Part shown: in pieces, positions 6,219 to 56,701 of the stretch | How the letters are laid out: each line of letters opens with the position of its first letter | How positions within the stretch are numbered: position 1 is the first letter of the stretch | Assembly: GCA_963602685.1 (NCBI GenBank) | Contig: CAVCJG010000001.1 | Span: forward strand, 122,683-186,682 | Reading direction: 5' to 3' | DNA from: Eggerthellaceae bacterium | GTDB lineage: Bacteria > Bacillota > Clostridia > Christensenellales > UBA1242 | Length of the DNA: 64,000 nucleotides | Translations under genes and position numbers: made by a program | Notes under the pieces: model-generated | What the model saw: only the letters and a program-made list of their open reading frames with translations | What the model was told of the DNA's origin: nothing | Databases searched by the model: none

Positions 6219-6237
6219 ATTTTAAACCAACCGTAAT

Positions 6238-6338
6238 GCACACGCAGTGTGCCATCATGCACGCATCAGCGTGCCATCCTGCATGCGCAAGCATGCCATA
6301 ATGTCACCAAAGGTGACTATCATGCTGACGCAGTCAGC
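6238..6338. repeat. array A of 5 tandem short GC-rich hairpins with CATCAT-like linkers
   Basis: The units start at 6238, 6259, 6281, 6303 and 6324. Each has a perfect 6-bp stem and a 3-4 nt loop. The linkers are CATCAT, CATCCT, CATAAT, TATCAT and CAATTT. Confidence 0.85.
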
Positions 6339-6423
6339 CAATTTGTCCACATAGGAATGATATGAAAGCACCCAAAAAATCCTGCGTCAAGCCCAAATTG
6401 TGACGGAATGTATGCAAAAACGC

Positions 6424-6452
6424 TTGACGTTTTTTTTTTTTTTCACTAGAAT
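6424..6452 (+). promoter_or_regulatory. promoter of giant surface protein gene A with a T14 tract in the spacer
   Basis: TTGACG (6424-6429), a 17-nt spacer made of T14 (6430-6443) plus cac, then TAGAAT (6447-6452). The flanks are conserved with locus B. Confidence 0.6.
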
Positions 6453-6584
6453 TAAGTTATAAAGATATCCACAAAAACTTAAAAAATAAATATTTATAAT
6501 ATTTAACAAACCTAAAACAATCAAATTTTGTCGAAAAACATTAGGTAATTTTGTCGAAAATGAGTAGAATATATAAAGGGAAAA

Positions 6585-9500
6585 ATGATAAAGACAAAGG
6601 CAAACGTAATTAAAATTCTTTTTATCGTTTTATTGTCGCTGTTGATGATGACAGGCGGCATAGTCTTTTTATGCAGTGAAGTCTCAACTCCGCCATCTCA
6701 AATGGAAGAACAAGTCGACGAAGTTAAAGCTGCAACCAACAACAACTATATTAGATGGACATCTTATGGTGCAAATGGACAAATTGGTTCTAATTTTGGT
6801 GGCTATGTATGGTCGGGATATGCAGGAGCTCAAAATTATAGAGGTGGTTTTGGAAAGACTGCTACTCAATCTACCGGCACTGATAGTAGTTCACTTACAA
6901 GAATTGCGGGGCAGTCGAATAGAGGTATCGTATTTAACACAGCGGTCACCAATTACAAAACAGGCCTCAGAGCTGGAGTATTAAGAATTTACTCCGATGG
7001 GAATCTATATGCTGCGGTTAGCTTGGATAGCTTAAGTGGAACAAGTGCTGAACGTGGAAGCATAAATTATAAAAACGATATATATTGGGATGTTTATTTA
7101 TATTATACCATCGCCTATACGGTAACTTGGAGTTATTGGCCTACAGAATATGGAAGTTTGCTTCATTACGATAAAAACTCACTAGTATATAGATATGATA
7201 CATCATCAGGTAGTGGCCAATGGTGGTGGACTGTTGATGGCGAGACTCAGCATGGAAGTCCATTGCTTCCATCGCGAACGGGTTATGCTTTTTCGGGACT
7301 GCAGACATCAAGTGGGCAAAAAATTATCAACTCTTCTATGGGCTGGGCAGGCTATTGGAATGCCAGCACAGCATATTGGGCACAATTATACGATAGTTGG
7401 ACACCATATACATATGAAGTCACTGCAAATGCAAATGGTGGTTCAATTCCTTCAACATCAGGTTGGAGTGGAACAGGTTCAACAGCAACAAAAACTGTTA
7501 CTTTTGATTCAACGTATGGCACACTTCCAACTCCAACCAGGACAGGTTATACATTTGGTGGCTGGTATACATCTTCAACTGGCGGGACAAAAATTGAGTC
7601 GAGCACAACGGTAAAAACAGCCAGTGATCATACAATTTATGCACATTGGACTGTAAATAATTATAACCTTAAAGTAGATCCAGCATCAGGTTCGTATAAC
7701 AATTCAACAGGTCTTACTTCAATTACACAAAATTACGGAACATCTTATACATACTTAACTCCAACAAAAACAGGATATAACTTTGACGGATGGCACACAG
7801 GCCAAAATTATTTGAGTTCGGCAAAAACATTTGACGGCTCATCTACATATGTTGCAGTCGGTCGTTCGCCTATGTATACAAGTGGCATTTCGGTTGCCGT
7901 CAGGGCAACTATGGACAGCTGGAGCGATTTTAAGACAAGTAATATGCGGCTAGTCTCCTGCACGGAAAGCGGTGGCTGGAACTTTGAGCCAAACGGCGAA
8001 TATGTCCAGTTTGCGTGTTATGACAGCGGTGTGGGATACAAATCCGCTAAAGCAAGCATAAAATGGTCCGATTTAGCGACGGGATATCACACTTTCACAG
8101 GAACTTTTGATGGTGAATATGCAAGAGTTTATATCGATGGTAAACTATATGGAACTTCAGCAAAATTCACATCTGGTAAAATTGGCTATCACGCGTCAAA
8201 CGGAATATTTATTGGTGCGGAAGCGGGCTCAAATGCGACAACTCCTGCGGGAAATTACTTTAAAGGAACTATTGACTATGTAGCAATTTCAAACAGTGGC
8301 ACAGTGTCAAAGCCAACATCGTTTACTTTCCCAGCTTACAACTCGGCATCAACAGCGCAATGGACAGCAAAAACATTTACTTTGACATTTGATGGCAATG
8401 GTGGCGGAACACCTAGCCCAACATCTAAAACTATCACATATGACAGCACTTATGGCACATTAGCGTCGGTTTCACGAACAGGTTACACCTTTAGTGGCTG
8501 GTGGACGGCTGCATCGGGTGGATCGCAGATAACGGAAAGCACAAAAGTGACCGTTACTGCCAACCAAACCGTCTATGCTCACTGGACAGTAAACAACTAT
8601 AATTTAACTCTTGCGCCAAACAGCGGATATTATGAATCGAGCAATGCTAATCGAACATATTCGGGGGCGTATGGTTCGACATCGTATTTTGGAGCGCCAC
8701 TCCGAACAGGTTATACGTTTGAAGGTTACACGCTTAGTGGGGCGGGCACACTTTCCGAACGCAAAGCGTCATCAGGATTTTCTTCAGCGACATTAAAAAG
8801 CGACGCCAACGGCGCGTATTACAATTATACTTTCTCAGGAACTCGACCAAGCAGTGACAGTTGGCCAAGCATACAGTATCCGGCGTATTCGTTTACCGCG
8901 GGGAAGACGTATGTGTTAAGCTTGAAAATAAGAGTCAATTCAACAACTGACGGCTTTTCAATTCGTCACGCGTCAATCTCAAACGACTGGGTTTGCCCAA
9001 TGCGCGGCTTTAGTAGTTCAACAAGCGGCTGGGTTGATGTAACGCTGGAACAAACGATCGGCGAAAATTACACGCGTTCAGGCACGTCTTATACATCGTC
9101 GCCACGACTTGAAATCTATATGAATTCAACCAAGGCAACAGGGTCGAACGGAACAACTTATAAAGTAGACTTTGATATTAGAAATATAGTTGTATATGAA
9201 AAAATATCAGGTCAAACCGCTTTTTCATCAATCTCTTACACTTACGGTGCAGACGCCGGAACAATAACAGCCAACTGGCAAGTTAAAAATTACAGCGTAA
9301 GCATCGATCCAAATGGCGGAACATACAGCGGAAGCACGGCAGCAAAAAGCGTAAGCGGAAACTACGGAACTACAACAACAATTTCAGATCCTACTAGAAC
9401 TGGCTACACCTTTGCTGGTTGGATTGCAACAAAAACAGATCTCAGCACAACATGGGCGCAAATTCTCTATCACGATACGGTTTATGGCACAAGTCTGTTT

Positions 9501-11882
9501 GCGTCCAGCGACGATTTAGCGTCAAAGGTTGTCAACACAACAACTAAAAACAGCCAATTTGCAACACTCGCAAAACTTAATTTGACAAGTTATGAGTTCT
9601 TGCTTCAATATCATCATACTTTGCAAACCGGAAGCTCAATGTATGCGAGAGAATACAACCGCTGGAAGCAAACATCAAATCCAGCAACGACTTCTGAATC
9701 CGTGAGCGGATATCAGGCGGTTTCAATTTCATGGAATACAAATACAAATTCATCGGCATTCCAAGGAATTGCTAAATCAAATTATTCTGGCACATTCATT
9801 GATGGAACAATCGGACATTCAAATTGGTTCTATGCGTTGGGCGCATCTGAAGCATGGAACGGGGGAATCCCAGGACCAAGCAGCGCCGAAACAAACATTG
9901 TAACCTTGTATCTTGCAACTGACAGCTCGCTGTCAAACTTTAAACCAACAGCAACATTCAAAGATGCGGATGCCTTAGGCTCGGACAACAAATATTACTT
10001 TAAAGACGAATCAGTAACTCTTAAAGCGCTTTGGATTGTAAACAGCTACACACTTACCGCAAAGGCAAATTCAGGATCAATCAAAGCAACGACAGGTTGG
10101 ACTGGCACTGGCACAACTGCAACAAAATCGGTGACATATAATACTGCATACGGAACTTTGCCAACAGTAGAAAGAACAGGATATGGATTTGCTGGTTGGT
10201 ATACAGCAGCAACAGGTGGAACAAAGGTTGATGCCAACACAAAAATAGGGGCAGCAAACGCAACTATTTACGCTCATTGGAGCATAAATTCATACACGCT
10301 TTATGCAAATTGCAATGGCGGATCAGCCCCAAGCACGCTTCCAACAGGATGGACAGCAAATGGAACGATGCCACAACGCTCAGTCAATTACAACGATACG
10401 TATGGAACACTTCCAGAGCCAACAAGACAAGGATATATCTTCGCCGGTTGGTGGACACAAGCAAGTGGCGGAAGTGAAGTGTATAATGGTACAAGAATGG
10501 GTGCGGCAGACGCTACAATCTATGCTCATTGGGTAGAAAGCTGGGTTAAATATATGTCAAGTGACAATCCTGTAATAGATCAAGCGGATGGTTATTACAA
10601 AATCGATTCAGCTGAAAGACTTGCACGTCTTGCATACCTTGTAAATTACAACATTGACAACGGCAAATGGGCAAGTTATAAATACAAACAAACCGCAGAT
10701 ATTGACCTTTCAGCACACTATTGGCAACCTATTGGATTGGAGACATATCCATTTTGTGGGACATTTGATGGCACCACATTTGATATTCACAACATGAAGA
10801 CATATTGCGAATCGGAATATTACTATTACTATAATACATATTTAGCTCAAGGTTTATTTGGAGTAGGAAGATCTATAAAAGTCTTGAATGTAAATATATA
10901 TGACGTTAATGTAAAAGGCAATGGAGCAGGTATTGTAGCTAAATGGGACAAAAATACAAGCGATAACAAAATTACAAATTGCCGAGTAACTGGTAAAATA
11001 AATGGTGATAACACAGGAGGTATCCTGGGAGATTCATATGGTGATGGAGTAATATCTAAATGCGAAAATTATGCAGACATTTATTCTGAAGACAGCACTT
11101 CTGGTGGAATCGTAGCTAGTAATTATTCACAAAATAGTTTTATAGTGTCGGAATGCGTAAATTATGGTGAAATCCATGCGTCAGGTGATGCAACAGGCGG
11201 TGGAATAATCGGAATTTGTGATGTCGGTACTGTAGAAAATTGTGTAAATTATGGTGACGTCGGAGATTATGGTGATACAGGTGGTATTGTAGGATTTGCA
11301 ATAAAAAATGTAACCATTAGAAATTGTATAAATAACGCAGATGTCATTGGCGCTTATGAGGTCGGTGGTATTCTTGGTGGAGCGAACAACAGTGTTTCTA
11401 TTAGCAATTGTATAAATATCGGAAGCTTAACAAATGAACAAGGATCGGTCGGCGGCATAGTTGGTGAAAACTATGGCGGCCAAGTTTCAATCGAGTCTTG
11501 TTTTGCTGATTGCCAAGTTGTGATCGGGGAAAAAGTTGGTGCGATTTTAGGTTCAACAGATACTTCTGATGTAACTATTACATATTGTGGCGCTAGAATA
11601 ACTATTCTTACGACAATAGCAAATGTGGGGGCATTCTACAATGCTGATAGTGGAGTGACTGTGACGTGCAATGATTCTTATTCACTTGTCAATAACAATG
11701 GAACAAAAATCAACCGCATCACTGCAACAAGCAGCGGAATGGATGGTAAGTTTGGAATGGTTTCATCAATTCATGATGGATTGCCAGTTCCACTTGGAAT
11801 CTACCATGTAAGCCAATATGGAACAACAAAAGGCATTGCTTCTACCTTAAAGGGAAGCAAATACGGCTGCACAACCGCTTAA
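6585..11882 (+). CDS. giant surface protein A (1765 aa): N-terminal membrane anchor, Listeria-Bacteroides (InlB B-type) repeats, LamG-like module, C-terminal GLUG repeats
   Basis: The N-terminal hydrophobic segment is ILFIVLLSLLMMTGGIVFLC. Repeats of the form TRTGYTFxGWYTxxxGGTKxxxxTxxxxxxxxIYAHW recur many times. The LamG-like region runs FDGSSTYVAV..YFKGTIDYVAISN. GG(I/L)(V/L/I)G motifs recur in the last ~300 aa. Confidence 0.9.
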   Translation: MIKTKANVIKILFIVLLSLLMMTGGIVFLCSEVSTPPSQMEEQVDEVKAATNNNYIRWTSYGANGQIGSNFGGYVWSGYAGAQNYRGGFGKTATQSTGTDSSSLTRIAGQSNRGIVFNTAVTNYKTGLRAGVLRIYSDGNLYAAVSLDSLSGTSAERGSINYKNDIYWDVYLYYTIAYTVTWSYWPTEYGSLLHYDKNSLVYRYDTSSGSGQWWWTVDGETQHGSPLLPSRTGYAFSGLQTSSGQKIINSSMGWAGYWNASTAYWAQLYDSWTPYTYEVTANANGGSIPSTSGWSGTGSTATKTVTFDSTYGTLPTPTRTGYTFGGWYTSSTGGTKIESSTTVKTASDHTIYAHWTVNNYNLKVDPASGSYNNSTGLTSITQNYGTSYTYLTPTKTGYNFDGWHTGQNYLSSAKTFDGSSTYVAVGRSPMYTSGISVAVRATMDSWSDFKTSNMRLVSCTESGGWNFEPNGEYVQFACYDSGVGYKSAKASIKWSDLATGYHTFTGTFDGEYARVYIDGKLYGTSAKFTSGKIGYHASNGIFIGAEAGSNATTPAGNYFKGTIDYVAISNSGTVSKPTSFTFPAYNSASTAQWTAKTFTLTFDGNGGGTPSPTSKTITYDSTYGTLASVSRTGYTFSGWWTAASGGSQITESTKVTVTANQTVYAHWTVNNYNLTLAPNSGYYESSNANRTYSGAYGSTSYFGAPLRTGYTFEGYTLSGAGTLSERKASSGFSSATLKSDANGAYYNYTFSGTRPSSDSWPSIQYPAYSFTAGKTYVLSLKIRVNSTTDGFSIRHASISNDWVCPMRGFSSSTSGWVDVTLEQTIGENYTRSGTSYTSSPRLEIYMNSTKATGSNGTTYKVDFDIRNIVVYEKISGQTAFSSISYTYGADAGTITANWQVKNYSVSIDPNGGTYSGSTAAKSVSGNYGTTTTISDPTRTGYTFAGWIATKTDLSTTWAQILYHDTVYGTSLFASSDDLASKVVNTTTKNSQFATLAKLNLTSYEFLLQYHHTLQTGSSMYAREYNRWKQTSNPATTSESVSGYQAVSISWNTNTNSSAFQGIAKSNYSGTFIDGTIGHSNWFYALGASEAWNGGIPGPSSAETNIVTLYLATDSSLSNFKPTATFKDADALGSDNKYYFKDESVTLKALWIVNSYTLTAKANSGSIKATTGWTGTGTTATKSVTYNTAYGTLPTVERTGYGFAGWYTAATGGTKVDANTKIGAANATIYAHWSINSYTLYANCNGGSAPSTLPTGWTANGTMPQRSVNYNDTYGTLPEPTRQGYIFAGWWTQASGGSEVYNGTRMGAADATIYAHWVESWVKYMSSDNPVIDQADGYYKIDSAERLARLAYLVNYNIDNGKWASYKYKQTADIDLSAHYWQPIGLETYPFCGTFDGTTFDIHNMKTYCESEYYYYYNTYLAQGLFGVGRSIKVLNVNIYDVNVKGNGAGIVAKWDKNTSDNKITNCRVTGKINGDNTGGILGDSYGDGVISKCENYADIYSEDSTSGGIVASNYSQNSFIVSECVNYGEIHASGDATGGGIIGICDVGTVENCVNYGDVGDYGDTGGIVGFAIKNVTIRNCINNADVIGAYEVGGILGGANNSVSISNCINIGSLTNEQGSVGGIVGENYGGQVSIESCFADCQVVIGEKVGAILGSTDTSDVTITYCGARITILTTIANVGAFYNADSGVTVTCNDSYSLVNNNGTKINRITATSSGMDGKFGMVSSIHDGLPVPLGIYHVSQYGTTKGIASTLKGSKYGCTTA
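7829..8300 (+). other. LamG / concanavalin-A-like lectin module inside protein A (absent from protein B)
   Basis: The pattern FDGSSTYVAVG..MRLVSCTESGGW..YHTFTGTFDGEYARVYIDGKLYG..IFIGAEAG..YFKGTIDYVAISN is typical of Laminin_G_3-type domains. Confidence 0.55.
8571..10808 (+). repeat. long paralogous segment shared with 42541..44780 (direct orientation)
   Basis: About 745 codons align colinearly with protein B, mostly identical residues by eye (HWTVNNY..SERKASSGF..QVKNYSVSIDPNGGTY..YKYKQTADIDLSAHYWQPIG..HNMKTYC). Confidence 0.9.
10850..11600 (+). repeat. GLUG-type repeat region of protein A
   Basis: Motifs such as GAGIVA, TGGILGD, SGGIVAS, GGGIIGI, TGGIVGF, VGGILGG and VGGIVGE recur roughly every 20-25 aa. 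Confidence 0.6.
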
Positions 11883-21436: not shown

Positions 21437-21455
21437 AATCATGGGGGAAGGAAAT

Positions 21456-31353: not shown

Positions 31354-31382
31354 TTGTCTGCAAAAAAATTAGATGGTATAAT
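31354..31382 (+). promoter_or_regulatory. promoter with extended -10 placed 7 nt before the ATG (leaderless candidate)
   Basis: TTGTCT (31354-31359), a 17-nt spacer, TGgTATAAT (31374-31382), then aataaac and the ATG at 31390. Confidence 0.5.
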
Positions 31383-31389
31383 AATAAAC

Positions 31390-34300: not shown

Positions 34301-34443
34301 AAGTTTTAGAAAATCAACCTGCATCGCATGACAAAACATTTAATGCGCTTGAATATGGTTACTTGCTTGTGATTCCAGCGGTTGGGATAATAATTTTGAT
34401 TATTGTCATTGTTTTGAAGCGAAAAACACGCAAAAAACATTAA
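31390..34443 (+). CDS. secreted, membrane-anchored peptidase M60-like (enhancin/mucinase-type) with Ig-like domains
   Basis: Signal peptide MKKKFFTIFCATLALLFVSLLPCGA. The zinc motif WGTLHEIGHGYQG has a downstream E. Ig-like segments (GEYRVDYEVKDSHQN.., GEYVVKFTVTDSDGN..) lie near both ends. The C-terminal TM is LLVIPAVGIIILIIVIVL followed by KRKTRKKH. Confidence 0.8.
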   Translation: MKKKFFTIFCATLALLFVSLLPCGAKMSASALTENENTFYSEKNAPMFYGTTEITIDKDVVSTFDLLDGRFRILAKDFEDGDLTPNIVCTFNDVDPTTAGEYRVDYEVKDSHQNVSKISVPVHVLDKSEGECKITRRVYAIPSLSNLSLVGTERCNNGDSQILGIYLPVGSKAQVKILSQDSPNLKVTYFANTNAQKTSSTIKVATTSEQYIQNTKDTTGYDSVPILTSPRLSEEKIDQTYDIELSFDSTVKALDYFHYKDSEQDFKDKWKTTENTYGVVDGEAIMAVVPFADVDKLSGYVAPRFDAPFESLDTFFEYYLEVVNRMDAMLGLSLNPQDPIDQNYRTKYLAVADASAGSAAYYNGSLIAVGSASISPLFQYGWGTLHEIGHGYQGYLGRGGTDEKTSIFLNETGNNILAHYIQMDPIYHKSDRYIGNLANCEANINNTRKNAVANGKTIFNNNSGVYTNTQEKLYCIVNLLDNFEGEQTYGKLFQYYRRIVKEVGKDQFTVPEIYAKFFAEEYNANIIPYLTAWTMSLSDDVKGEILNSNAVAYSITSDTLSDESFEKVFVGENLKLKYGLISDEVLAKYNIKSEVKLNIQIDDFNLVKGKNVALTQNGNIIKVQKISADTVIFNNLDTGTYEIKLPIVYGYDSLLCMATLQEGDNDISYAYSKMVYEDLSKPLTVIKILGIHGTLGYSLTFNDGYKSGSIVYGAADLGNQGKQEWIDNPDNVYVSVTIKDPNGEVSQSVEVKGVEYFWGKTPENATPSFEVGSKICIFTHRPTLVGVYLKENDQKIDAYSVSQTEQNIEYEITENGLKLLNKADFDEKEVLFKAANDEIKRVLNNAQNTLTESELANKRLKVATKNKVLSMYSYLPSDDQETYANFISQITGGGKPTITVKTSDTEIKVGEQLDLYSLIEITDNEDFVIQSNSTNVKIESNFDANKTGEYVVKFTVTDSDGNTSAKEIIVKVLENQPASHDKTFNALEYGYLLVIPAVGIIILIIVIVLKRKTRKKH

Positions 34444-34795: not shown

Positions 34796-36784
34796 ATGAA
34801 AAAATATCTAAAAAATATTCTCATTTGGTCTATTATCTGCGCCGTTATCGGTTATGGCGTAGGTGTTGGCGTTGCATATTTACAAAATGACAAAATTTGG
34901 GATATAGCATTGCTCACAGACAAAATGGTTTGGATTTTGCTTGCAACGGGCGTTTTAATCGGCTTTGTTTGCGGAATCTATTTCAAGCCAAAAGGGGCAA
35001 ACAAAACTAAGTCAGTCGGCAAAACTGCCAGCGGAACAGAATATTCGTTGCACTTCGACTCAGGCTTTATGACAAGAGAGCAAATTTTAAACGACAAATT
35101 TTTGATCAACCAAACATGGTCTTCGTTGCCAACTCTTAAGAAAACAGGTTCGTTTATTAAAACCGAACAAAATGGCTCAAAATTAGAAATCACGATGAAA
35201 GATGAAATGCACGCGTTGATTATTGGTACAACCGGAACAGGTAAAACCTCGATGATTATTGACCCTGCAATTCGTATCTATGCACACACAGCAGAAAAGC
35301 CATCGCTTGTGATAGCCGACCCAAAGGGCGAACTTTACGCACACCACGCAAGAGCGCTTATGGAAGAAGGCTATGAAGTTAAAATGTATGACCTTGACAA
35401 CCCATATTCATCTGCACGCTGGAACCCAATGGACAGACCATATGAAATGTTCCAAAAGGCAATGAACCTTGGAAAAACTGCTAAAAAATATTCTGGCTGC
35501 ACTCCTGCTCAGGCTGGCAAATCTACACTTGAAGGTGTTGAATACGGCCCAGTTTGGTATGAACTTGACGGAGTCGCTTTCCCAGACGAAGAAAGTTTAA
35601 ACAAAGAAATCGAAGCAAAAAAGCAAAAAATGATTGGTGACGCAAAGTTTGAACTTCGCGGAATCGCCGCATCAGTTTGCCCAATCTCACAAGGCACAAA
35701 CGATACAATGTGGGAAAGTGGGGCACAGGACTATCTTTACGGAATTATGCTTGCCATGCTTGAAGACACAGTCGACAAAAGACTTGGCGAAAACCAACTC
35801 CGTCAGGATCAATTCAACTTTTACAACCTTTACAAAATTTCACAAAAGAAAGATGCCGACCCAGACAATCCATTCAACTCAGTTCGAAGATATTGCACTG
35901 GCAGAAGCAAAACATCTGAAGTTATGTCAATCACATCTGGCGTAATCAACTCAGCCGCTTCAACCACAAAGTCATACTTGAGCGTGCTTTCAACAAAAAT
36001 CACGGCGCTTATGCAAGATATGGGAATTTGCTATGCAACCAGCGGAACAGACATCGATTTCAACCGCTTCGTTGAAAAACCAACCGCATTCTTCATTAAA
36101 ATTCCTGATCACAAAAAAGAACGTCACTCACTTGCAACAATCTGCATTTCGCAACTTTACCGTTGCCTTGTCGACTGTGCAAACAAATATCCAGGCTTAA
36201 AACTTCCACGCCACGTTTACTTTATGCTTGATGAGTTCGGTAACTTGCCAGTAATTCAAGACTTCGGAACAATGGTTACCGTTTCACGTTCAAGAAATAT
36301 ATTCTTCCAAATCGTTGTTCAATCATTTACTCAGCTTGACACAAAATACGGCAAAGAAGTCGCCGAAACCCTTAAAGGAAACTTCAACATTCAAATCTTC
36401 TTGGGAACAGAAGACACGCCAACGCGTGAAGCTTTCTCAAAGAGCTGCGGTGAAGTTCAACTTATCACAAAAGAAGAATCTGAAACCAAAAACAAAGGCA
36501 AGGGCGAAGAGTCAACTTCAAAATCAACCAGCACACAACGTTCGGTTAAACCTTTGGTTGACCCATACGAACTCAGCACTTTGCCATTCGGAACAGCAAT
36601 CATCAAAGTGTTCAGATACAATCCAATTCGTTGTATGTTGCCACAATTCCACAACATCCCACAAATGGAAAAGTATCCACCACTTGTTGCATCTCAAACA
36701 AGCAGAGCGCTTGATGAAGAACACGTATTCTACGACATCGACAAGCGTAACCAAATTGTGCTTGGCAGACCAAGTTTCTTCTAA
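34796..36784 (+). CDS. type IV secretion coupling protein (VirD4/TraG/TraD family ATPase)
   Basis: Two N-terminal TM helices, Walker A IIGTTGTGKTS, the VIADPKGELY motif and Walker B YFMLDEFGNLP. RBS GGGGGGA. Confidence 0.8.
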   Translation: MKKYLKNILIWSIICAVIGYGVGVGVAYLQNDKIWDIALLTDKMVWILLATGVLIGFVCGIYFKPKGANKTKSVGKTASGTEYSLHFDSGFMTREQILNDKFLINQTWSSLPTLKKTGSFIKTEQNGSKLEITMKDEMHALIIGTTGTGKTSMIIDPAIRIYAHTAEKPSLVIADPKGELYAHHARALMEEGYEVKMYDLDNPYSSARWNPMDRPYEMFQKAMNLGKTAKKYSGCTPAQAGKSTLEGVEYGPVWYELDGVAFPDEESLNKEIEAKKQKMIGDAKFELRGIAASVCPISQGTNDTMWESGAQDYLYGIMLAMLEDTVDKRLGENQLRQDQFNFYNLYKISQKKDADPDNPFNSVRRYCTGRSKTSEVMSITSGVINSAASTTKSYLSVLSTKITALMQDMGICYATSGTDIDFNRFVEKPTAFFIKIPDHKKERHSLATICISQLYRCLVDCANKYPGLKLPRHVYFMLDEFGNLPVIQDFGTMVTVSRSRNIFFQIVVQSFTQLDTKYGKEVAETLKGNFNIQIFLGTEDTPTREAFSKSCGEVQLITKEESETKNKGKGEESTSKSTSTQRSVKPLVDPYELSTLPFGTAIIKVFRYNPIRCMLPQFHNIPQMEKYPPLVASQTSRALDEEHVFYDIDKRNQIVLGRPSFF

Positions 36785-36795
36785 TCATTTAAATA

Positions 36796-36826
36796 AAAAA
36801 CGGCCAAAAACTGGTCGTTTTTTTTG
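36796..36826 (+). terminator. rho-independent terminator after the coupling protein gene
   Basis: Stem acggcc/ggtcgt (one G-U pair) followed by T8. Confidence 0.6.
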
Positions 36827-36879
36827 TTGCCAAGCACCATTATCACCGCAATTTCATACAAAAAGCGGAGAGGTGTAAA

Positions 36880-37356
36880 GTGGAATATAATGATTTTGCT
36901 TGTCCAACGCCAGACGAATATGAAAATCTAGCAAAGGCGTATATGCAGTCTTTGCGAGATAAGGGATTTGTGTTTATAAGCCTTGAAAACGAAGCGCAAA
37001 AAATGCTTGTTGACGAAGTTTTTGACCTTTTGTTTAAACTGCGGGCGAGTTATCGAGCGCTCGGCACGTTTATGGGCAGCGACAAGTTTTATCAATTAAA
37101 TGAAGAGCAAATTGAAACCTTGCGCGATATGTTTTCATACACGCATAACCGCGGGTTTAGAATAGTTTGGAACAAAACCAAATGCTTTTTAAATTGCATC
37201 AGTCTTGAAAATAAACTGCTTATCAAAATGTTTCTTCTCGCGCAAAAATCGCAAGAATATGAAAGCCTTGTCGGGCTTTGTTTTCAGCGGCTAAGAATGT
37301 CGGCGGATTTATACGAAGTGTCTTCGTCATGGCAGTTTGACGATCAACAAAAATAA
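36880..37356 (+). CDS. hypothetical protein (158 aa)
   Basis: GTG start with RBS GGAGAGGTG. No recognisable motifs. Confidence 0.4.
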   Translation: MEYNDFACPTPDEYENLAKAYMQSLRDKGFVFISLENEAQKMLVDEVFDLLFKLRASYRALGTFMGSDKFYQLNEEQIETLRDMFSYTHNRGFRIVWNKTKCFLNCISLENKLLIKMFLLAQKSQEYESLVGLCFQRLRMSADLYEVSSSWQFDDQQK

Positions 37357-37487
37357 AAAAACGCGGCAGGGGAAAATAAAATAACGCAAAAGTGATAAAA
37401 AATAAAAGATTGGATTTTTCTCCAATCTTTTTTGCTATTTTTTATTGTTAAATAATTAAATATAATGATTATTAAACTATTAAACCT

Positions 37488-38057
37488 TTAAACCATTAAG
37501 AAATTCAGCACTTTTGGCAGGGCACGATCAAGCGCGCGGCGATAATCTCTAAGTTTGTCAGGCGCATATTTGCTTTCTTTGTTTTGAGCGTCTACAAGTT
37601 TTTTTGTTGTGATTTGCAAATCGTCAACCAAACCTTCGCAAAGCAAGTTTCCTAAAACAAAAACATAGTTTTCTTCGTCGATGTCGTTTCTAGCCAAAAT
37701 GTCAGGCAGGTTAGGGTTGTCGGCAATGGTGTCAAAAGCATAGTTCAAGAAGAATTGCAATTTTTCAATAGCAAATTCGTTGCCGTTTGCCGCAGCAAGA
37801 ATAGCCCATTGCATATAAAGGTCATAGTTTTCTGGCACAGCCCCAGGCACGCCGTTTTTGTAATAATAACTCATAACGTCCTGCGCGATGCAGTTGCCTT
37901 CCATGGCAAGCGAACCAACTTCAGTAAACATATCAATGAAAGATTTTTTATATTTTTCAGGATTTTCTAAGCAGTCGTTAAGCACGCTTCTGAGTTTGGT
38001 AAATCCATCATAGGCATCTTTTTTCTTAACAAAATATTGTTGTTCCACCTTTGGCAC
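37488..38057 (-). CDS. hypothetical helical protein with a Sel1-like repeat
   Basis: GNCIAQDVMSYYYKNGVPGAVPENYDLYMQWAILAAANGNEFAIEKL resembles one Sel1/TPR-like repeat; the rest is unassigned. Confidence 0.45.
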   Translation of the reverse strand: MPKVEQQYFVKKKDAYDGFTKLRSVLNDCLENPEKYKKSFIDMFTEVGSLAMEGNCIAQDVMSYYYKNGVPGAVPENYDLYMQWAILAAANGNEFAIEKLQFFLNYAFDTIADNPNLPDILARNDIDEENYVFVLGNLLCEGLVDDLQITTKKLVDAQNKESKYAPDKLRDYRRALDRALPKVLNFLMV

Positions 38058-38079
38058 TCCTTTTTATAAAAAGAGTATA

Positions 38080-38820
38080 TCACATTTGTTTTGAATTTGA
38101 AACTTTTTTTGGGGTAGTTTTTGTCGGTTTAGGTTTTTCTTCGCTTTTCTCAGGCGCATTTTTAGAAGTTTCATACATCTGCACTAAAAATGATTCAAAC
38201 AGCGGCAAAGCCAGTGTCGCAAGCACAATCACAGCAGGCAGAGCAATCAGCATAACGCTCAGCCAGGTTGGGACTTTCATGAAAAGCGTGAAAATAAAGT
38301 AAATTCCAACGCCAATCGACGCACCCGAACAAACAAGCGCAATCATGCCAAGCACTGTGATCAATATTGTGAAACGATAGCCATAAGTCAGTTTTTTCGA
38401 TTTTTCAAAAATCTCTTTTGTGGTCAGTTCTGGGTTGTCAAAATATACAAGAGCAGCAAACGAGTTGTTTAGCCCATAAATGACACCGGGAACAATCAAA
38501 AGCAGCCCCCAAACAATCATTCCGCACAAAGCAATGATTTTGATGATTAAAATTTTTAGAATGCTTTTAAAAGGCAAAAACAAACTTTCGAAGTCCGGCT
38601 TTTGACCCCTAAATGAGCGTAACACAAAGCCATAAACGCCCACTTGCATATAAGCCATCGCGATAAAAGCGAGAGCGAAACTCAAAAGGGGAGCAAACAG
38701 CCCCAATGCGACAACCACAATCGCAAGCATATTTGCAAGAATAAAATTAAACCAATTAGCCTTTGCAGTAGGCATAAGGTTGGATGTGTTAAATGTTGTG
38801 ATTTTATCTTCTATTTTCAT
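38080..38820 (-). CDS. DUF975-like integral membrane protein
   Basis: The pattern WGLLLIVPGVIYGLNNSFAALVYFDNPELTTKEIFEKSKKLTYGYRF matches the DUF975 core. The C-terminal tail is Lys/Pro-rich. Confidence 0.6.
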   Translation of the reverse strand: MKIEDKITTFNTSNLMPTAKANWFNFILANMLAIVVVALGLFAPLLSFALAFIAMAYMQVGVYGFVLRSFRGQKPDFESLFLPFKSILKILIIKIIALCGMIVWGLLLIVPGVIYGLNNSFAALVYFDNPELTTKEIFEKSKKLTYGYRFTILITVLGMIALVCSGASIGVGIYFIFTLFMKVPTWLSVMLIALPAVIVLATLALPLFESFLVQMYETSKNAPEKSEEKPKPTKTTPKKVSNSKQM

Positions 38821-38998
38821 AATTTTTCTCCTTAAAATTAAAGTGTGAAAAAATTATGTATTTATTCTAAAAAATTAACACAAATCTCTCGCGTGCCTCC
38901 ATGCGCATATTTGAAATAATAAAATTGAAATACCACCGCAACGCACTCATATAAAAAACCAACCTTTATGCACACGCATATATAAAATCAACCGCAAA

Positions 38999-39124
38999 GC
39001 ACACGCAGTGTGCTATCATGCACGCGCTAGCGTGCCATCATACTGGCGAAGCCAGCCATCATGCGCAACTAGTTGCGCCATCATGTCACTGCAAGTGACC
39101 CTGTCAGTCGGACTGCCGACTGAC
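38999..39124. repeat. array B of 6 tandem short GC-rich hairpins with CATCAT linkers
   Basis: The units start at 38999, 39020, 39042, 39063, 39085 and 39103. The stems are 5-9 bp. The linkers are TATCAT, then CATCAT three times, then CCT. The last unit has a 9-bp stem followed by TTTT. Confidence 0.85.
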
Positions 39125-39204
39125 TTTTCCACATTGTCCAAATAAAAAAACAAAAAATTATTTCACGCATCGCCAAAATTGTGACGGATTGTATGCAAAA
39201 TTGC

Positions 39205-39233
39205 TTGACGTTTTTTTTTTTTACAGGTAAAAT
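39205..39233 (+). promoter_or_regulatory. promoter of giant surface protein gene B with a T12 tract in the spacer
   Basis: TTGACG (39205-39210), a 17-nt spacer made of T12 (39211-39222) plus acagg, then TAAAAT (39228-39233). Confidence 0.6.
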
Positions 39234-39404
39234 TATTATAGATATTGTCCACAGAAACAAAAAATTCAAGAAAAAAACATCGAATTTATCAATAATTATT
39301 TTTTTGTCGAAAAACGTTAGGTAGTTTTAATAAAATCGGTTAAAATAAATTATGGAATAAATATATAATTAAATATTATTGTTAATATTTTCAAGGAGGA
39401 AGGT

Positions 39405-42400
39405 TTGATTAAACGTAAGCTCAGTTACAGCAAATTAATGTATCTGTTGGTAGCGCTTAGCCTTTCTTTTTTTATTTTCGGAATCGTCTTTCTTTCTTGC
39501 TTTAATGTAAATGACAACTCGCAAGACTCGTCCGAAGCGGCAATCACGTATTGGACAGATTATGCTGCTGATTCTTTTGCAGGCGGAAACGGAACAGAGT
39601 CTAGCCCTTATCTCATTGAAACGGCAGCGCAGCTTGCACGCTTAGCGAAATTAATAAACAATAAAGACACAACTGCAGCTTGGAATTCAAAATATTATAA
39701 ACAAACTGCGAATATTGATTTAAGTACTGGCGGACATATATGGTATCCGATAGGGAATAGTTCATTTGATGAAGAAGCCGAAAATAATCACACTGTCTTA
39801 AAAAATGCTACGGTTCCTTTTAAGGGTACATATGATGGTGATGGGCATATTGTTAAAGGAATTAAAAATTCTTTACTAAGTTCAACAGGCGGCTTGTTTG
39901 GATCGGGAAGAGGCTGTACAATCAAAAACGTTGGAGTGTTAAACCCAGAAAGAATATATGGCATTTATGGTGCGGGGAGCATTTTAGGGGCTGCACTTTC
40001 GTTTAACGATAGCGGCACGACACTTAATGATGCTTGTAATGTCCTAAATTGTTTCAGTGCTGGTGGGACATATATTGGCGGAGCAAAGTACGGCGCAGGC
40101 GGAATTATAGGCTATGCGTATATTGGTGGTATAGAAAATTGTTATAATGCTAGTTCGGGTTTAGTTTCTTCATCAGCTACTGGTGGATTAATCGGATATG
40201 GAGTTTTTGGGGTGGCTTCATATTCTTATAATATTGGTGGTATGTCAACGAGCTCAAATTATCCTCAAGGCGGGATATTTGGTGCTAATGGTTTATCATC
40301 GGCAACCAGCGTTTTTAGTGTTGGAAAAAGAAACACTTCAAAGTATGCTGGTGTAAGTGGGAATTGTTTAGAGTCAGGAGTAACACCTTCATGTTCTAAA
40401 GTTTTCCATACAGCCATCGTCGATTATAATCAATGGAATATGTCTGCAGATCCGCCTGCTATTACTTCAGGTGGCACTCTGTCTGGAGTTTCGCGTCCAT
40501 CAAACTTGGAAACACAGGCAAAAGACTGGAGTTGGTTTAGCACAAATATAGATGCAGGGAATAATAACTATAAATTAAACAGCACAATTATTGAAAATGA
40601 CGGATATCCTGTTCTTTCTGTATTTTGCAAAAATGTAACAGCAAATGCAAATGGCGGCTCAGTGGTAAGTGGCAATGGTTGGCCAGCAGGTTCTACATCG
40701 ACGAAGACAATGGTCAATGGCTATCTTAATATGCCAACAGCAACAAGAACCGGATACACTTTTGATGGTTGGTATACGGCAGCAAGTGGTGGAACTAAAG
40801 TTGAACCTACTTGGGCAGACATGAAAGAAAGCATACCTTCAACAATTTACGCCCATTGGTCAAGAAATAGCTATTCAATAAGCACTGACCTTCGTGGTGG
40901 AACTACATACAAAAATATTATAACACCTTCAACAATTTGCGACAGCTGGACGGCTTCGACAAGTTATTCCAACTATATGACACTTCAATATGACGCTCCA
41001 AGTGGCGTTTATACAATGACAAACACAGCAGCAGGCAATGACCCATATGCAACAGGAAATCAAACCGTTTATTTGTCAACTGGCAAAACTTATGTTATGC
41101 ACGCGATTTGCACTGATAATTCAGGAGTTTCTGTAACTGGCAATCCTTTGCAAGTCTTTTATGGAATAAGTCTGGGCTACAGCGAAGCAAACAGCAAGCG
41201 GTTTGGTGAAACGACGACGCAAGAATTTACGGTTTCCACGTCTGGAACTTACAATTTCCGGTTTGACAACGACTTTTCTTATGCAAGCGGTGGAGTGATG
41301 AAAGTGCGAGAGTTCTGGGTTGCAGAAAAATCGCAATCAACGGCGACTCAATCTTATTCCGTTCCATATCAAGGATATTATCCTGCGGCGAATCCGACTA
41401 AAGAAGGTTACACATTTGCAGGCTGGAAAGAACTTTTAAACACAACAACGAATGTTACATTAAGTACAAGCACTTCAAATTACAATTATTTGCCAATGTT
41501 GACGGGTGTTGTTCCGGGTACGAAATATGAAATAACAATCGGAACGGCAAAACTAACATCTGGCTCTGCAAGCCAATTTACAACATTAATTTATGACTTT
41601 ACGACAAGCAAAACTTTAGCAAGTGCGACAAATAATTTTGGATCAAATGTTTCTTATACACTTACTTGTCCAAGTTCGGCAACCGCGTCAAACGATATTC
41701 GAATAATTATTTATGCAGGCATTAGTGGCGCGACGGCAAATAATGCGGCATCATATTCAAACATTCAAATCTTCTCTAGTAATGTTTTAGGTTCATATTC
41801 TGCTTTACATAACACAAGCACAGCAAGCAAAACTTATTATGCGCAATGGCTTCCTGTTGCGAGCAAAGTTACATTTAACCCAAATGGGGGGACAATAACT
41901 TCTGGCAATGCAACAGATTATGTGACATATGGCGCGACATATGCGGGCAAGACAAACATCTATCGCCCTATATTTGGTTCGCTTGCGCTTACAAATTCAG
42001 GAAATATATTCAGTGTCAATGTCGACAATTCGTCTGGAACAAGTGTCAAGTATGCAAATTTCATGTCTTCGTATGACGGCGCAACGGTGCAACCAAACAC
42101 AACTTACACGGTTGTAATTAAGGTGACCGCTTATAGTGGGAATCAATTAAAGATTAATTTTACTTCACCTTATGATATCGGCTCAAGTGGGTTAGGCGAT
42201 ACGGCAACGTCAACTTGTTGGTTTGATATTTCGAACACGGGCGTTTACTACAAGACATTTACAACAAAAGCAAACCTTAATGGTTCATATTTTAATTTTA
42301 GATCCTACATTCCTGTTGATGCTGGCAAAAAGGCGATTGCAACCTTCCAAGTTGCGGTTTTCGCCGGCTCGTTCAACTCAAATCCTACAAATTCAACCTT

Positions 42401-45400
42401 TGAGTATCATGAAGCAGCAAGCGGGAATGCTCTTCCTGTCGCTACAAGAACGGGTTATACATTTGACGGCTGGTTTACAGCTGAAACAGGCGGAACAAAA
42501 GTTTCAGCCGACACGATAGTTACAAACGCAAGTGATCATGTGTTGTATGCTCATTGGACGGTGAACAACTATGATTTGATTCTGTCACCTAATGACGGAT
42601 ATTATGAATCAAGCAGCTCAGACAGAACTTATACTGCTGCTTATGGCACGACTTCATACTTTGGAATGCCACTTCGAACGGGTTATACGTTTGAAGGCTA
42701 CACGCATACTGGTTCGGGCACGCTTTCCGAACGAAAAGCATCATCGGGCTTTACTTCTGCCACATTAAAGAGCGATTCAAACGGCGCCTATTACAATTAT
42801 ACTTTCTCAGGAACGCGACCAAGCAGTGACAGCTGGCCAAGCATCCAATATCCAACCTATTCGTTTACAGCAGGGAAGACGTATGTATTAAACTTTAAAA
42901 TTAGAGTAAATTCAACAACTGATAGTTTCGCGGTTCGTCACTCGTCAATCGCAAACGACTGGGTATGCCCAATGCGCGGCTTTAGTGGCGCGACAAATGG
43001 TTGGGTTGATGTAACTCTGGAGCAAACTATCGGCGAAAACTACACGCGTTCAGGCTCGTCTTATACATCATCTCCACGACTTGAAATCTACATGAATTCA
43101 ACCAAGGCAACAGGGTCAAACGGCGACTCATACAAGGTTGATTTTGATATTAAAAACATTGTTATATATGAAAAAGGAACAGGGAAAACCGCATTTACGT
43201 CTATTGTTTACACTTATGGTGCTGGAGCAGGAACGCTGACAGCGAAATGGCAAGTTAAAAATTATAGCGTGAGCATCGATCCAAATGGTGGAACATATGG
43301 CGGAAGCACGACTGCAACAAGCGTAAGCGGAAACTATGGAACTACAACAACAATTTCAGATCCAACAAGAACTGGCTATACCTTTGCTGGTTGGATTGCA
43401 ACAAAAACCGATCTCAGTACGACATGGGCGCAAATTCTCTATCATGATGCCGTTTATGGCTCAAGTCTGTTTACGTCAGGCGATAACTTGGCGTCAAATG
43501 TTGTCAATACAACGACTAAAAACAGTCAATTTGCAACACTTGCAAAACTTAATTTGACAAGTTATGAGTTCTTACTTCAATATCATCACACATTGCAAGC
43601 GGGAAGTTCAATGTATGCGCGAGAATACAACCGCTGGAAGCAAACATCAAATCCAGCAACGACAACAGAAGCAGTAAGTGGATATGAAGTGGTTTCGATT
43701 TCGTGGAATACAAATACGAATTCGACCGCATTCCAAGGGATTGCGAGATCAAACAGTGGGGCCACCTTTATTGACGGAACAATCGGGCACTCAGACTGGT
43801 TCTATGCTCTCGGATCATATAATGAATGGAACGGGGGAATTCCAGGACCAAGCAGCGCCGAAACAAACATTGTAACTTTGTATCTTGCAACAGACAGCTC
43901 GCTTTCAAACTTTAAACCAACGGCAACATTCAAAGATGCTGACGCTTTAGGCTCAAACAATACATATTACTTTAAAGACGAATCAGTAACTCTTAAAGCA
44001 CTTTGGATTGCCAACATTTACAAACTTACAGCAAACGCCAATGGCGGATCAATTCCGGAAACCACAGGCTGGAGCGGAACAGGCGCAACAGCAACAAAGT
44101 CAGTCGTTTATGACACTGCATACGGCACACTTCCAGTGCCAACAAGAACAGGCTATGGCTTTGCTGGTTGGTATAGATCGGCATCAGGCGGAATGGGAGT
44201 CAGCGCAACCACAAAAATGGGAGCGGCAAACGTAACAATTTACGCTAATTGGGAATTAAATTCATACACTCTTACGGCTGACTGCAATGGCGGAACAGCG
44301 CCAAGCACGCTTCCAACAGGTTGGACGGCAAATGGAACTGCACCATATATAACACTTAATTATGATGCTGATTATGGAATTCTTCCAGTGCCAACAAGAC
44401 AAGGATATATATTTGCTGGCTGGTGGACGGCAGCTAGCGCAGGCAGTGAAGTAAACTACAAGACAAAAATTGGAGCGGGCGATACAAAAATCTACGCGCA
44501 TTGGGTTGAAAGCTGGGTTAAATATATGTCAGACGACAACCCAGTATTGGATCAAGCGGACGGCTATTACAAAATCGACTCAGCTGCAAAACTTGCACGT
44601 CTTGCATATCTTGTAAATAGTAACGCGGACAACGGCAAATGGGCAAGTTATAAATACAAGCAAACCGCCGACATCGACCTTTCAGCACACTACTGGCAGC
44701 CAATCGGTAACGCAACATATCAATTTAAAGGGATTTTCGACGGCACAACGTTCGACTTCCACAACATGAAAACATATTGCGGAGTAAACGGATATGCTTC
44801 ATATGATTATTATGGGCTATTTGGTTATACAAAATCAGCTGAAATTCGAAATGTAAACAACTATGATATTGACATGAAATGCAGAGAATACTCGGGCGGT
44901 ATAGTGGGTAAATCCAGAGCAGGCACTATTGAAAATTGTAAAGTGACTGGGAAAATATCGGGCATATCTAATTTTACAGCGGGCATTACTGGCGAAAGTT
45001 CTTCAACAATTAAAGATTGCGTGAACTATGCTTCGGTCACTTCAGACTACTATGCTGTTGCAGGAATCGTCGGTGATGGTAGTGGGACAATTGAAAATTG
45101 CATCAATTATGGAAATATTACAGCATACGAATTTGCGGGCGGAATTGTTGGAAGAGCGTTTGGAGGAAATATTGAAAATTGTGTAAATGAAGGCAATATT
45201 ACTTGTACTTATCATATGGTTGGTGGTATCGCAGGCGAAATTTCATATGGGAACATTGTTTCGTGTAGCAATTTAGGCATTGTAACAGGTTTAGTTTACG
45301 TTGGCGGAATAGTAGGACAAAGTTCTTCTTCAGATGATATAACAATTTCTCAATGTTTAAACACCGGGGATATTGTTATTACGGATACAGACAGGACTAC

Positions 45401-45839
45401 ATATGCTGGTGGAATATTGGGAAATGCTTACACGGCTACAACGATAGAATCGTGTTTTGCTGATTTCAAAATTACTTCAAATAAAACAATTACGTTTGGA
45501 TCAATTTTGGGCTATGCTGAATACAACGTTACGATAAAATATTGTGGCGCTAGGATTACTACAACATCGAATCTGCCTGCGACAACAGTTTATGGGAATA
45601 AGAAAACATCGGCAACAGTTACGGCAAACGATTGGTATTCATTGTTAACTATTAGAGGAAATAAAATAAATCGTATTGCCACGACAAGCAGCGGAATGGA
45701 TGGTAAGTTTGGAATGATCTCATCAATTCATGATGGATTGCCAGTTCCACTTGGAATCTACCATGTAAGCCAATATGGAACAACCACAGGCATTGCTTCA
45801 ACCTTAACGGGAAGTAAATACGGCTGCACAACCGCGTAA
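39405..45839 (+). CDS. giant surface protein B (2144 aa): N-terminal anchor, GLUG module at both ends, B-type repeats, beta-rich unknown modules
   Basis: TTG start 4 nt after AAGGAGGAAGG. The N-terminus MIKRKL..LVALSLSFFIFGIVFLSC is homologous to protein A. The architecture is mosaic, with a central ~745 aa and the last ~60 aa nearly identical to A. Confidence 0.9.
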   Translation: MIKRKLSYSKLMYLLVALSLSFFIFGIVFLSCFNVNDNSQDSSEAAITYWTDYAADSFAGGNGTESSPYLIETAAQLARLAKLINNKDTTAAWNSKYYKQTANIDLSTGGHIWYPIGNSSFDEEAENNHTVLKNATVPFKGTYDGDGHIVKGIKNSLLSSTGGLFGSGRGCTIKNVGVLNPERIYGIYGAGSILGAALSFNDSGTTLNDACNVLNCFSAGGTYIGGAKYGAGGIIGYAYIGGIENCYNASSGLVSSSATGGLIGYGVFGVASYSYNIGGMSTSSNYPQGGIFGANGLSSATSVFSVGKRNTSKYAGVSGNCLESGVTPSCSKVFHTAIVDYNQWNMSADPPAITSGGTLSGVSRPSNLETQAKDWSWFSTNIDAGNNNYKLNSTIIENDGYPVLSVFCKNVTANANGGSVVSGNGWPAGSTSTKTMVNGYLNMPTATRTGYTFDGWYTAASGGTKVEPTWADMKESIPSTIYAHWSRNSYSISTDLRGGTTYKNIITPSTICDSWTASTSYSNYMTLQYDAPSGVYTMTNTAAGNDPYATGNQTVYLSTGKTYVMHAICTDNSGVSVTGNPLQVFYGISLGYSEANSKRFGETTTQEFTVSTSGTYNFRFDNDFSYASGGVMKVREFWVAEKSQSTATQSYSVPYQGYYPAANPTKEGYTFAGWKELLNTTTNVTLSTSTSNYNYLPMLTGVVPGTKYEITIGTAKLTSGSASQFTTLIYDFTTSKTLASATNNFGSNVSYTLTCPSSATASNDIRIIIYAGISGATANNAASYSNIQIFSSNVLGSYSALHNTSTASKTYYAQWLPVASKVTFNPNGGTITSGNATDYVTYGATYAGKTNIYRPIFGSLALTNSGNIFSVNVDNSSGTSVKYANFMSSYDGATVQPNTTYTVVIKVTAYSGNQLKINFTSPYDIGSSGLGDTATSTCWFDISNTGVYYKTFTTKANLNGSYFNFRSYIPVDAGKKAIATFQVAVFAGSFNSNPTNSTFEYHEAASGNALPVATRTGYTFDGWFTAETGGTKVSADTIVTNASDHVLYAHWTVNNYDLILSPNDGYYESSSSDRTYTAAYGTTSYFGMPLRTGYTFEGYTHTGSGTLSERKASSGFTSATLKSDSNGAYYNYTFSGTRPSSDSWPSIQYPTYSFTAGKTYVLNFKIRVNSTTDSFAVRHSSIANDWVCPMRGFSGATNGWVDVTLEQTIGENYTRSGSSYTSSPRLEIYMNSTKATGSNGDSYKVDFDIKNIVIYEKGTGKTAFTSIVYTYGAGAGTLTAKWQVKNYSVSIDPNGGTYGGSTTATSVSGNYGTTTTISDPTRTGYTFAGWIATKTDLSTTWAQILYHDAVYGSSLFTSGDNLASNVVNTTTKNSQFATLAKLNLTSYEFLLQYHHTLQAGSSMYAREYNRWKQTSNPATTTEAVSGYEVVSISWNTNTNSTAFQGIARSNSGATFIDGTIGHSDWFYALGSYNEWNGGIPGPSSAETNIVTLYLATDSSLSNFKPTATFKDADALGSNNTYYFKDESVTLKALWIANIYKLTANANGGSIPETTGWSGTGATATKSVVYDTAYGTLPVPTRTGYGFAGWYRSASGGMGVSATTKMGAANVTIYANWELNSYTLTADCNGGTAPSTLPTGWTANGTAPYITLNYDADYGILPVPTRQGYIFAGWWTAASAGSEVNYKTKIGAGDTKIYAHWVESWVKYMSDDNPVLDQADGYYKIDSAAKLARLAYLVNSNADNGKWASYKYKQTADIDLSAHYWQPIGNATYQFKGIFDGTTFDFHNMKTYCGVNGYASYDYYGLFGYTKSAEIRNVNNYDIDMKCREYSGGIVGKSRAGTIENCKVTGKISGISNFTAGITGESSSTIKDCVNYASVTSDYYAVAGIVGDGSGTIENCINYGNITAYEFAGGIVGRAFGGNIENCVNEGNITCTYHMVGGIAGEISYGNIVSCSNLGIVTGLVYVGGIVGQSSSSDDITISQCLNTGDIVITDTDRTTYAGGILGNAYTATTIESCFADFKITSNKTITFGSILGYAEYNVTIKYCGARITTTSNLPATTVYGNKKTSATVTANDWYSLLTIRGNKINRIATTSSGMDGKFGMISSIHDGLPVPLGIYHVSQYGTTTGIASTLTGSKYGCTTA
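39890..40300 (+). repeat. N-terminal GLUG-type repeat region of protein B
   Basis: TGGLFGS, GAGSILGA, GAGGIIGY, TGGLIGY and QGGIFGA motifs follow a YLIETAAQLARLAKLIN..YYKQTANIDL..FKGTYDGDGHIV lead-in. That lead-in parallels the C-terminal module. Confidence 0.6.
42541..44780 (+). repeat. long paralogous segment shared with 8571..10808
   Basis: See the feature at 8571. The two segments are colinear, in direct orientation and about 34 kb apart. Confidence 0.9.
44815..45560 (+). repeat. C-terminal GLUG-type repeat region of protein B
   Basis: SGGIVGK, VAGIVGD, AGGIVGR, VGGIAGE, VGGIVGQ and AGGILGN motifs. The sequence diverges from the equivalent region of A. Confidence 0.6.
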
Positions 45840-56636: not shown

Positions 56637-56701
56637 TTTTTAAATACTATTATTTTTGATTAAAGTCAAAATTTTTTTTTAATCTTGGGTCAAAAATTGG
56701 G

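Follow-up and report, generated by a model that had tools for sequence, protein, structure and literature searches.

The T-run in the spacer of a promoter we call P1 probably serves as a mutation-driven switch of a gene for a giant, putative surface protein, with slippage setting the distance between the -35 and -10 hexamers (we put this at a probability of roughly 0.68). The features of a contingency promoter that were found are a repeat of slip-prone length, its placement between conserved hexamers, and polymorphism between strains. By analogy with characterized cases, hexamers that do not vary, a homopolymer in their spacer that mutates readily, and a target family of (here putative) surface proteins together form the signature of simple-repeat promoter phase variation, and P1 is probably phase-variable. 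In the proposed mechanism, slipped-strand mispairing at replication would add or remove T's in the P1 spacer, shifting the two hexamers relative to each other both in distance and in rotational phase, such that P1 would be strongest with a 17-nt spacer, weaker with 16 or 18 nt, and essentially off at 15 nt or below. As each paralogue carries its own tract, the cells of a population would differ heritably and reversibly in the giant adhesin-like proteins transcribed from P1. We infer slippage as the cause, the effect on transcription and its reversibility from the pattern of sequences described below.

The window (the whole stretch of DNA that was analysed, 64 kb in length) carries the promoter at two paralogous loci, A and B. 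The features of locus B are, from 5' to 3':

39176..39200, plus strand: conserved upstream box AAATTGTGACGGATTGTATGCAAAA, centred at about -50, a candidate activator site.
39205..39210, plus strand: -35 hexamer of P1, TTGACG, read directly and invariant in 13/13 alleles.
39211..39222, plus strand: T12 homopolymer, the variable part of the spacer (T11 in orthologue L004, T10 in orthologues L002 and L003).
39223..39227, plus strand: ACAGG, the non-T remainder of the spacer, read directly.
39228..39233, plus strand: -10 hexamer of P1, TAAAAT, without an extended TG motif; TA[AG]AAT is invariant in the alignment.
39248..39253, plus strand: TCCACA box directly 3' of the -10 hexamer; TCCAC is invariant in 12 alleles.
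39302..39346, plus strand: TTTTGTCGAAAAACGTTAGGTA box and candidate second promoter P2 (TAGGTA at 39318-39323, 17 nt, TAAAAT at 39341-39346).
39405..45839, plus strand: gene B, 2144 aa, with a TTG start and the ribosome-binding site AAGGAGG at 39393-39399.

The corresponding features of locus A are:

6395..6452, plus strand: paralogous cassette.
6395-6419, plus strand: upstream box.
6424-6429, plus strand: TTGACG.
6430-6443, plus strand: T14.
6444-6446, plus strand: CAC.
6447-6452, plus strand: TAGAAT.
6526..6570, plus strand: TTTTGTCGAAAAAC box and candidate P2 (TAGGTA at 6542-6547, 17 nt, TAGAAT at 6565-6570).
6585..11882, plus strand: gene A, encoding a 1765-aa paralogue of B.

The original prediction had described locus B as TTGACG, T12, acagg and TAAAAT with a 17-nt spacer, and locus A as T14 plus 3 nt, also with 17 nt, and the letters bear out both readings. 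It had further described the 45 nt 5' of the -35 box as nearly identical in the two loci. Over that length only 33/45 positions match; the well-conserved stretch starts at GCC, runs for about 33 nt up to the -35 box and includes AAATTGTGACGGAwTGTATGCAAAA (6395-6419 and 39176-39200). This upstream box has only two copies in the window, and the element GT.ACGGA.TGTATGCAAAA within it shows no variation in 12 aligned alleles. Locus B has a further box resembling TCCACA on the upstream side, near 39130. An 8-bp inverted repeat (CGTCAAGC / GCTTGACG, window 6381-6429) encloses the upstream box of locus A and overlaps its -35 hexamer; L015, L017 and L018 have the same repeat, but locus B and the majority of alleles lack it.

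Several observations set these two sites apart as promoter-like. In a promoter scan each was the best match of its own region, scoring 10/12 with a 17-nt spacer, and in both window copies each hexamer matches the consensus at 5/6 positions. TTGACG followed by T10 occurs at only these two sites in the window, compared to 0.09 expected. The T14 and T12 runs are the sole homopolymers of at least 10 nt in the 64 kb, the next longest being two T9 runs at 56672 and 58275, and T14 and T12 both reach the length needed for slippage (about 8-9 nt or more). The organism appears to use the TTGACA-17-TAnnnT consensus, as near-consensus sites lie just 5' of other genes in the window, for example at 13268 before ileS and at 21408 before an ORF starting at 21441. 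Promoters of the sigma-70 type that lack an extended -10 element rely on the -35 contact and on spacing. Since the TG motif is absent from the sequence of both window copies, P1 should likewise depend on its -35 contact and spacing. We regard P1 as a well-conserved, putative sigma-A-type promoter whose hexamers would be used by RNA polymerase.

To compare alleles, orthologues were recovered from independent gut-metagenome assemblies by exact-protein look-ups of the orthologues themselves and of small neighbour genes, namely NifU (upstream of A) and a 246-aa membrane protein (upstream of B). Spacers were read by script in 13 alleles, comprising window A and B plus alleles given L numbers, and 12 cassette sequences were aligned. 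The alleles, with their spacer composition and length, are:

B type, window: T12+ACAGG, 17 nt.
B type, L004: T11+ACCGC, 16 nt.
B type, L002 and L003 (one strain, two samples): T10+ACGGG, 15 nt.
A type, window and L015: T14+CAC, 17 nt.
A type, L007 and L009: T13+CAC, 16 nt.
A type, L013: T15+CAC, 18 nt.
A type, L014: T10+CAC, 13 nt.
A type, L008: T8-A-T5-CAC (interrupted run), 17 nt.
A type, L010: T9-A7-C (interrupted run), 17 nt.
C type, L024: T11+ATCGC, 16 nt, also read directly.

Among the 13 alleles the T-run spans T10-T15 and the spacer 13-18 nt, as counted in assembly consensus sequences, where long homopolymers can be miscounted; neither hexamer varies, nor does the 25-nt upstream box. 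The alignment of 12 sequences showed no variation in the -35 and -10 hexamers, the upstream box, the TCCAC box or the TTGTCG...TTAGGTA box, whereas outside the T-run the spacer differs freely in sequence (CAC, ACAGG, ACGGG, ACCGC, ATCGC, A7C). Constant hexamers and upstream box around a non-T spacer that is free to vary are what one would expect if the hexamers are functional. The tract also evolves more quickly than the DNA on either side of it: L009 and L013 are identical at 98/106 upstream and 99/100 downstream positions and have T13 and T15, respectively, and window A and L007 share 99/100 positions of the downstream flank with tracts of T14 and T13. Length polymorphism therefore exists between strains whose flanks are conserved. 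The consensus state can also be stable, as T10 was found in both samples of the one strain represented by L002 and L003. The B orthologue with a 15-nt spacer retains an intact ORF of 2131 aa, as expected if a low state is reversible.

The look-ups also bore on whether further paralogues carry the cassette, a check that the original prediction had proposed. A third locus of a related genome, the C locus of L024, lies between a U32 peptidase gene and hrcA and does carry it, so that three loci of one related genome (L007, L002 and L024) bear the cassette besides the two in the window. Broader scans were less productive. The upstream-box pattern, run twice against GTDB representative genomes, gave no match; its first version was too narrow, since AAATGTGACGG or AGTAACGG stands in some alleles. 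A JGI metagenome scan returned two chance matches from which the promoter was absent, and an IMG/VR scan and exact-protein look-ups of gene B, P0005 and P0006 returned no match. A look-up through the GDPD gene downstream found contigs that stop short of the B promoter.

These alleles change the reading of the two window copies. The original prediction held that spacing, not sequence, is conserved; outside the window spacers of 13, 15, 16, 17 or 18 nt occur, so that the claim holds only for the window, where 17/17 is one of several states. As A and B are paralogous, their agreement does not count as two independent events. The prediction also proposed that the two tract lengths are each compensated by the non-T remainder. 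This does not hold in general, since every paralogue type has its own set remainder (CAC, or in B- and C-type copies always 5 nt, of varying sequence), but T-runs are indeed some 2 nt shorter in copies whose remainder has about 2 nt more. Its suggestion that tract length is evolving is supported by T10-T15 between invariant hexamers and unlike tracts within near-identical flanks. On these sequences the tract looks hypermutable, and 16-17 nt seems to be the favoured state, based on the 10/13 spacers of 16-18 nt, the trade-off between tract and remainder, and the two interrupted-run alleles (L008 and L010), both at exactly 17 nt. The interrupted alleles are presumably stabilised and should slip less. 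Both window copies would, in the mechanism we propose, be in an ON state, and A and B would switch independently.

A second conserved element bears on how much of the expression P1 could control. The box TTTTGTCGAAAAACrTTAGGTA is common to loci A and B, about 95 nt downstream of the -35 hexamer; the TTTTGTCGAAAAAC box is doubled in A-type copies, 21 nt apart, and the arrangement of box and P2 is kept in every cassette allele. In ten further loci at the B position (L025-L034; reverse strand, about 1340-1500), from a widespread lineage whose marker protein P0207 occurs on 184 contigs, the hairpins described below, P1 and the T-tract are all absent upstream of a large Flg_new gene. Only the TTGTCGAAAAAC/P2 region is kept there (TTTTGTCGAAAAAC...TTGGTA, 17 nt, TAAAAT), so P1 is dispensable for having such a gene at this position and another promoter probably exists. 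A similar box stands directly 5' of a good TTGTAA-16-TGnTATACT promoter in L007 (15085-15140), before an unrelated large gene of 1374 aa. P2 is likely a second, proximal promoter, a candidate that may be activator-dependent, and it probably gives transcription independent of P1. The presence of P2 means that expression as a whole may respond by degrees and not in an all-or-none way, and the switch may thus be a rheostat rather than an ON/OFF device, with P1 adding a stochastic, heritable component on top of P2.

Taken further, P2 could drive the gene by itself, through the TTTTGTCGAAAAAC box, TAGGTA, 17 nt and TA[AG]AAT, leaving the T-run as an accessory module that drifts neutrally with little or no effect on expression. 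The invariance of P2 and its box in all alleles, their retention where P1 is wholly absent, the similar box before a good promoter in L007, and the presence of 13- and 15-nt spacers beside an intact gene would all fit. Drift, however, leaves three things unexplained, namely the invariance of TTGACG and TA[AG]AAT around a variable spacer, the interrupted alleles at exactly 17 nt, and the concentration of 10/13 spacers at 16-18 nt. In addition, the -35-like hexamer of P2 is poor, matching at 3-4/6 positions, and A-type genes would have a leader of only about 10 nt. We consider this account unlikely, while granting it some weight.

The most unusual element near the promoter is not the tract but an array of small hairpins:

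38998..39125, plus strand: six GC-rich mini-hairpins with CCATCAT(G) separators, 5' of the cassette, forming six consecutive stem-loops (z = -6.2).

Such arrays were found at window 6225-6340 and 38998-39125, at 2982-3135 of L009, in L010, L014 and L016, and at 9445-9601 of L024. The units have stems of 5-9 bp, loops that are often GCA, GCAA or GAAG, a period of about 22 nt and a constant CCATCAT(G) separator; stem sequence differs from unit to unit with pairing kept, and the number of units ranges among alleles from 0 to about 10. In the roughly 296 kb of DNA examined the arrays are confined to DNA upstream of cassettes and always lie on the gene strand. An Rfam search of both upstream regions gave no known RNA family, only sub-threshold terminator-like matches. 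L012 lacks, at 2900-3100, gene A in its entirety as well as the T-tract, the -35 hexamer and the hairpin array; the T-run of the nifU terminator is joined straight to ACTAGAAT, in the -10 region, and the next gene, following a TTTGTCGAAAGA box, encodes 1372 aa with no Flg_new domain. This looks like a deletion between short repeats, namely T-runs and TTGTCGAAA boxes.

It is conceivable, and in our view doubtful, that array, 25-nt box, spacer, TCCACA boxes and a second, box-dependent promoter form one portable composite cassette swapped among giant-adhesin paralogues, in which the array would be a second length-variable control layer. As part of that joint reading, and with equally modest credence, the cassette would be acquired, lost and exchanged among paralogues. 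If so, the array would be a control layer not yet described, for example an insulator or a cruciform or supercoiling sensor.

Returning to the tract as a switch, its length could act through DNA geometry rather than through spacing per se. A-tract or T-tract DNA is intrinsically bent. The T-run might then alter the geometry between RNA polymerase and a regulator bound at the upstream box or the TCCACA boxes, a rheostat similar to that of sabA, whose poly-T tract sits in the promoter region (PMC2715451). The invariant 25-nt box immediately 5' of the -35 hexamer and the TCCACA boxes on both sides of the promoter are compatible with such a regulator. The tract, however, lies 3' of both the upstream box and the -35 hexamer, so the distance from box to hexamer is unaltered. 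Only the -35/-10 distance and the distance to the downstream TCCACA box change with the tract, which makes spacer length the simpler reading, and we consider an effect of geometry improbable.

The length differences could in principle be assembly or sequencing artefacts around a tract that is truly fixed. Homopolymers of at least 10 nt are error-prone on several platforms, and three contigs (L016, L017 and L018) end at or inside the tract. We also considered these contig ends as a sign of within-sample heterogeneity and rejected this, as a multi-copy cassette would break assemblies anyway. Artefact would have to account for a 5-nt range (T10-T15) over different assemblers and studies, for an identical T10 from two independent samples of one strain, and for interrupted alleles that are real sequence variants and cannot be miscounts, and we hold it to be very unlikely.

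That an intrinsic terminator or an insulator has its tail in the T-run, or that the promoter sits on an invertible segment, is hardly credible: the inverted repeat preceding the T-run of window locus A (CGTCAAGC/GCTTGACG) is what would suggest it, yet that repeat is missing from locus B and most alleles, a terminator scan was empty at both tracts, and 13/13 alleles point towards the gene. A terminator tail was rejected, as the fold of the 76 nt that surround the B tract does not surpass that of shuffled sequence (z = +1.66), and an inverton was rejected on the single orientation in 13 alleles and the lack of flanking inverted repeats common to A and B; a search for inverted repeats around the promoter found only low-complexity A/T complementarity, not shared between the two loci.

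The genes behind the switch as we propose it are of a kind usually targeted in this way, as N-terminally anchored InlB-B-repeat/GLUG proteins with mosaic N-termini are common subjects of such switches. In proteins A and B a hydrophobic anchor or signal at the N-terminus is combined with InlB B-repeats (Flg_new/TIGR02543, Listeria-Bacteroides repeats) and GLUG motifs, and the two are putative surface proteins. The original prediction had called them mosaic paralogues, and their C-terminal 1200 aa are indeed 68% identical and their N-terminal parts unrelated. A PDB sequence search with protein B matched no solved structure. A conserved Cys follows right after the N-terminal hydrophobic segment (GGIVFLC, GIVFLSC) at about residues 20-32, encoded within window 6600-6680 and 39440-39500, and is not part of a canonical lipobox. 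At least four paralogues lie on the source contig (204,505 bp), at least two of these (P0005 and P0006) outside the window. Two independently switching genes were expected to give four surface phenotypes; with at least four paralogues this is an undercount, and the presence of P2 weakens the picture further.

The surroundings of the two loci differ among related contigs, which come from human gut metagenomes, including Hadza samples. In L008 (9680-14634, GCA_019971425.1) a single paralogue of 1524 aa is bordered by NifU, which flanks A on the left, and by GDPD-LepA, which flanks B on the right, and the 27.5-kb segment that separates A and B in the window, with ileS and a VirD4-like gene, is not found between those flanks. 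Compared to window 6180-45900, this suggests a rearrangement or deletion through recombination between paralogues. Directly 5' of locus B (34796-38820) is a gene for a CD1115-family VirD4-like conjugal coupling protein (662 aa), with small genes without a family match beside it. The same arrangement is seen in L004 and L025-L034, and this region may be the remnant of an integrated conjugative element adjoining the adhesin gene. A 1029-aa ORF at 31354-34443 has a faint match to the ImpA family of HExGH metalloproteases (E = 7e-4, far below the family cut-off).

To our knowledge, simple-repeat phase variation has been worked out almost entirely in pathogens, and work on gut commensals has been mostly on invertible promoters; we know of no slippage-driven expression switch described for this bacterial group. 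The locus provides a concrete case, defined at the level of sequence, from an uncultured Clostridiales lineage of the gut that recurs in human gut metagenomes. If the switch is confirmed, tract length could be read from metagenomic reads to tell which surface proteins a population expresses in a given host, and the combinatorial surface strategy of the Vlp type would extend to commensal Firmicutes.

Promoters in which a repeat between the -35 and -10 hexamers sets spacer length by its number include Neisseria porA (poly-G) and opc (poly-C) and Haemophilus hif (TA repeats). In these, and in vmm of Mycoplasma mycoides, expression is high, intermediate or none depending on repeat number. The vmm promoter carries TA repeats in its spacer (PMC10502178). 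The repeats of this group are G, C or TA, whereas here the repeat is T, and the hosts are Gram-negative pathogens and a mycoplasma, in contrast to an uncultured gut Clostridiales commensal. The sabA tract of H. pylori adjoins the core hexamers and does not lie between them, and sabA also has a CT repeat in its coding region; the present tract, in contrast, fills the -35/-10 spacer. The two are alike in placing a poly-T of similar length in the promoter region of an adhesin gene, and the sabA tract is polymorphic within and between strains via slipped-strand mispairing, with 13-19 T within strains (PMC2715451). The proteins described here have no homology to the products of vlp, sabA, porA, opc or hif.

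The closest functional analogue is the vlp family of Mycoplasma hyorhinis, to which the present case does not belong. Each vlp gene is described as having a poly-A tract in its promoter, in a paper that relays earlier work on this point (PMC10502178, citing Citti and Wise 1995). Both are multigene families, of variable surface proteins in vlp and of putative ones here, in which each member has its own promoter with an A/T homopolymer of some 12-17 nt, and the vlp lineage is related to Firmicutes. Tract indels in vlp accompany ON/OFF transcription, and the paralogues switch independently to give combinatorial surfaces, whereas here such switching is predicted. The families also differ in their products: Vlps are small lipoproteins with tandem-repeat size variation, while the InlB-B-repeat/GLUG proteins of the present family measure 1500-2150 aa, lack a canonical lipobox and, with their Flg_new and GLUG domains, are not Vlp homologues. 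Unlike that of vlp, the present cassette further includes a hairpin array of variable size, a probable second promoter and, upstream, a conserved box. The mechanism itself is already known; what is new is the lineage and the protein family, a family of giant mosaic internalin-B-repeat proteins that appears to be tuned by a promoter-spacer homopolymer.
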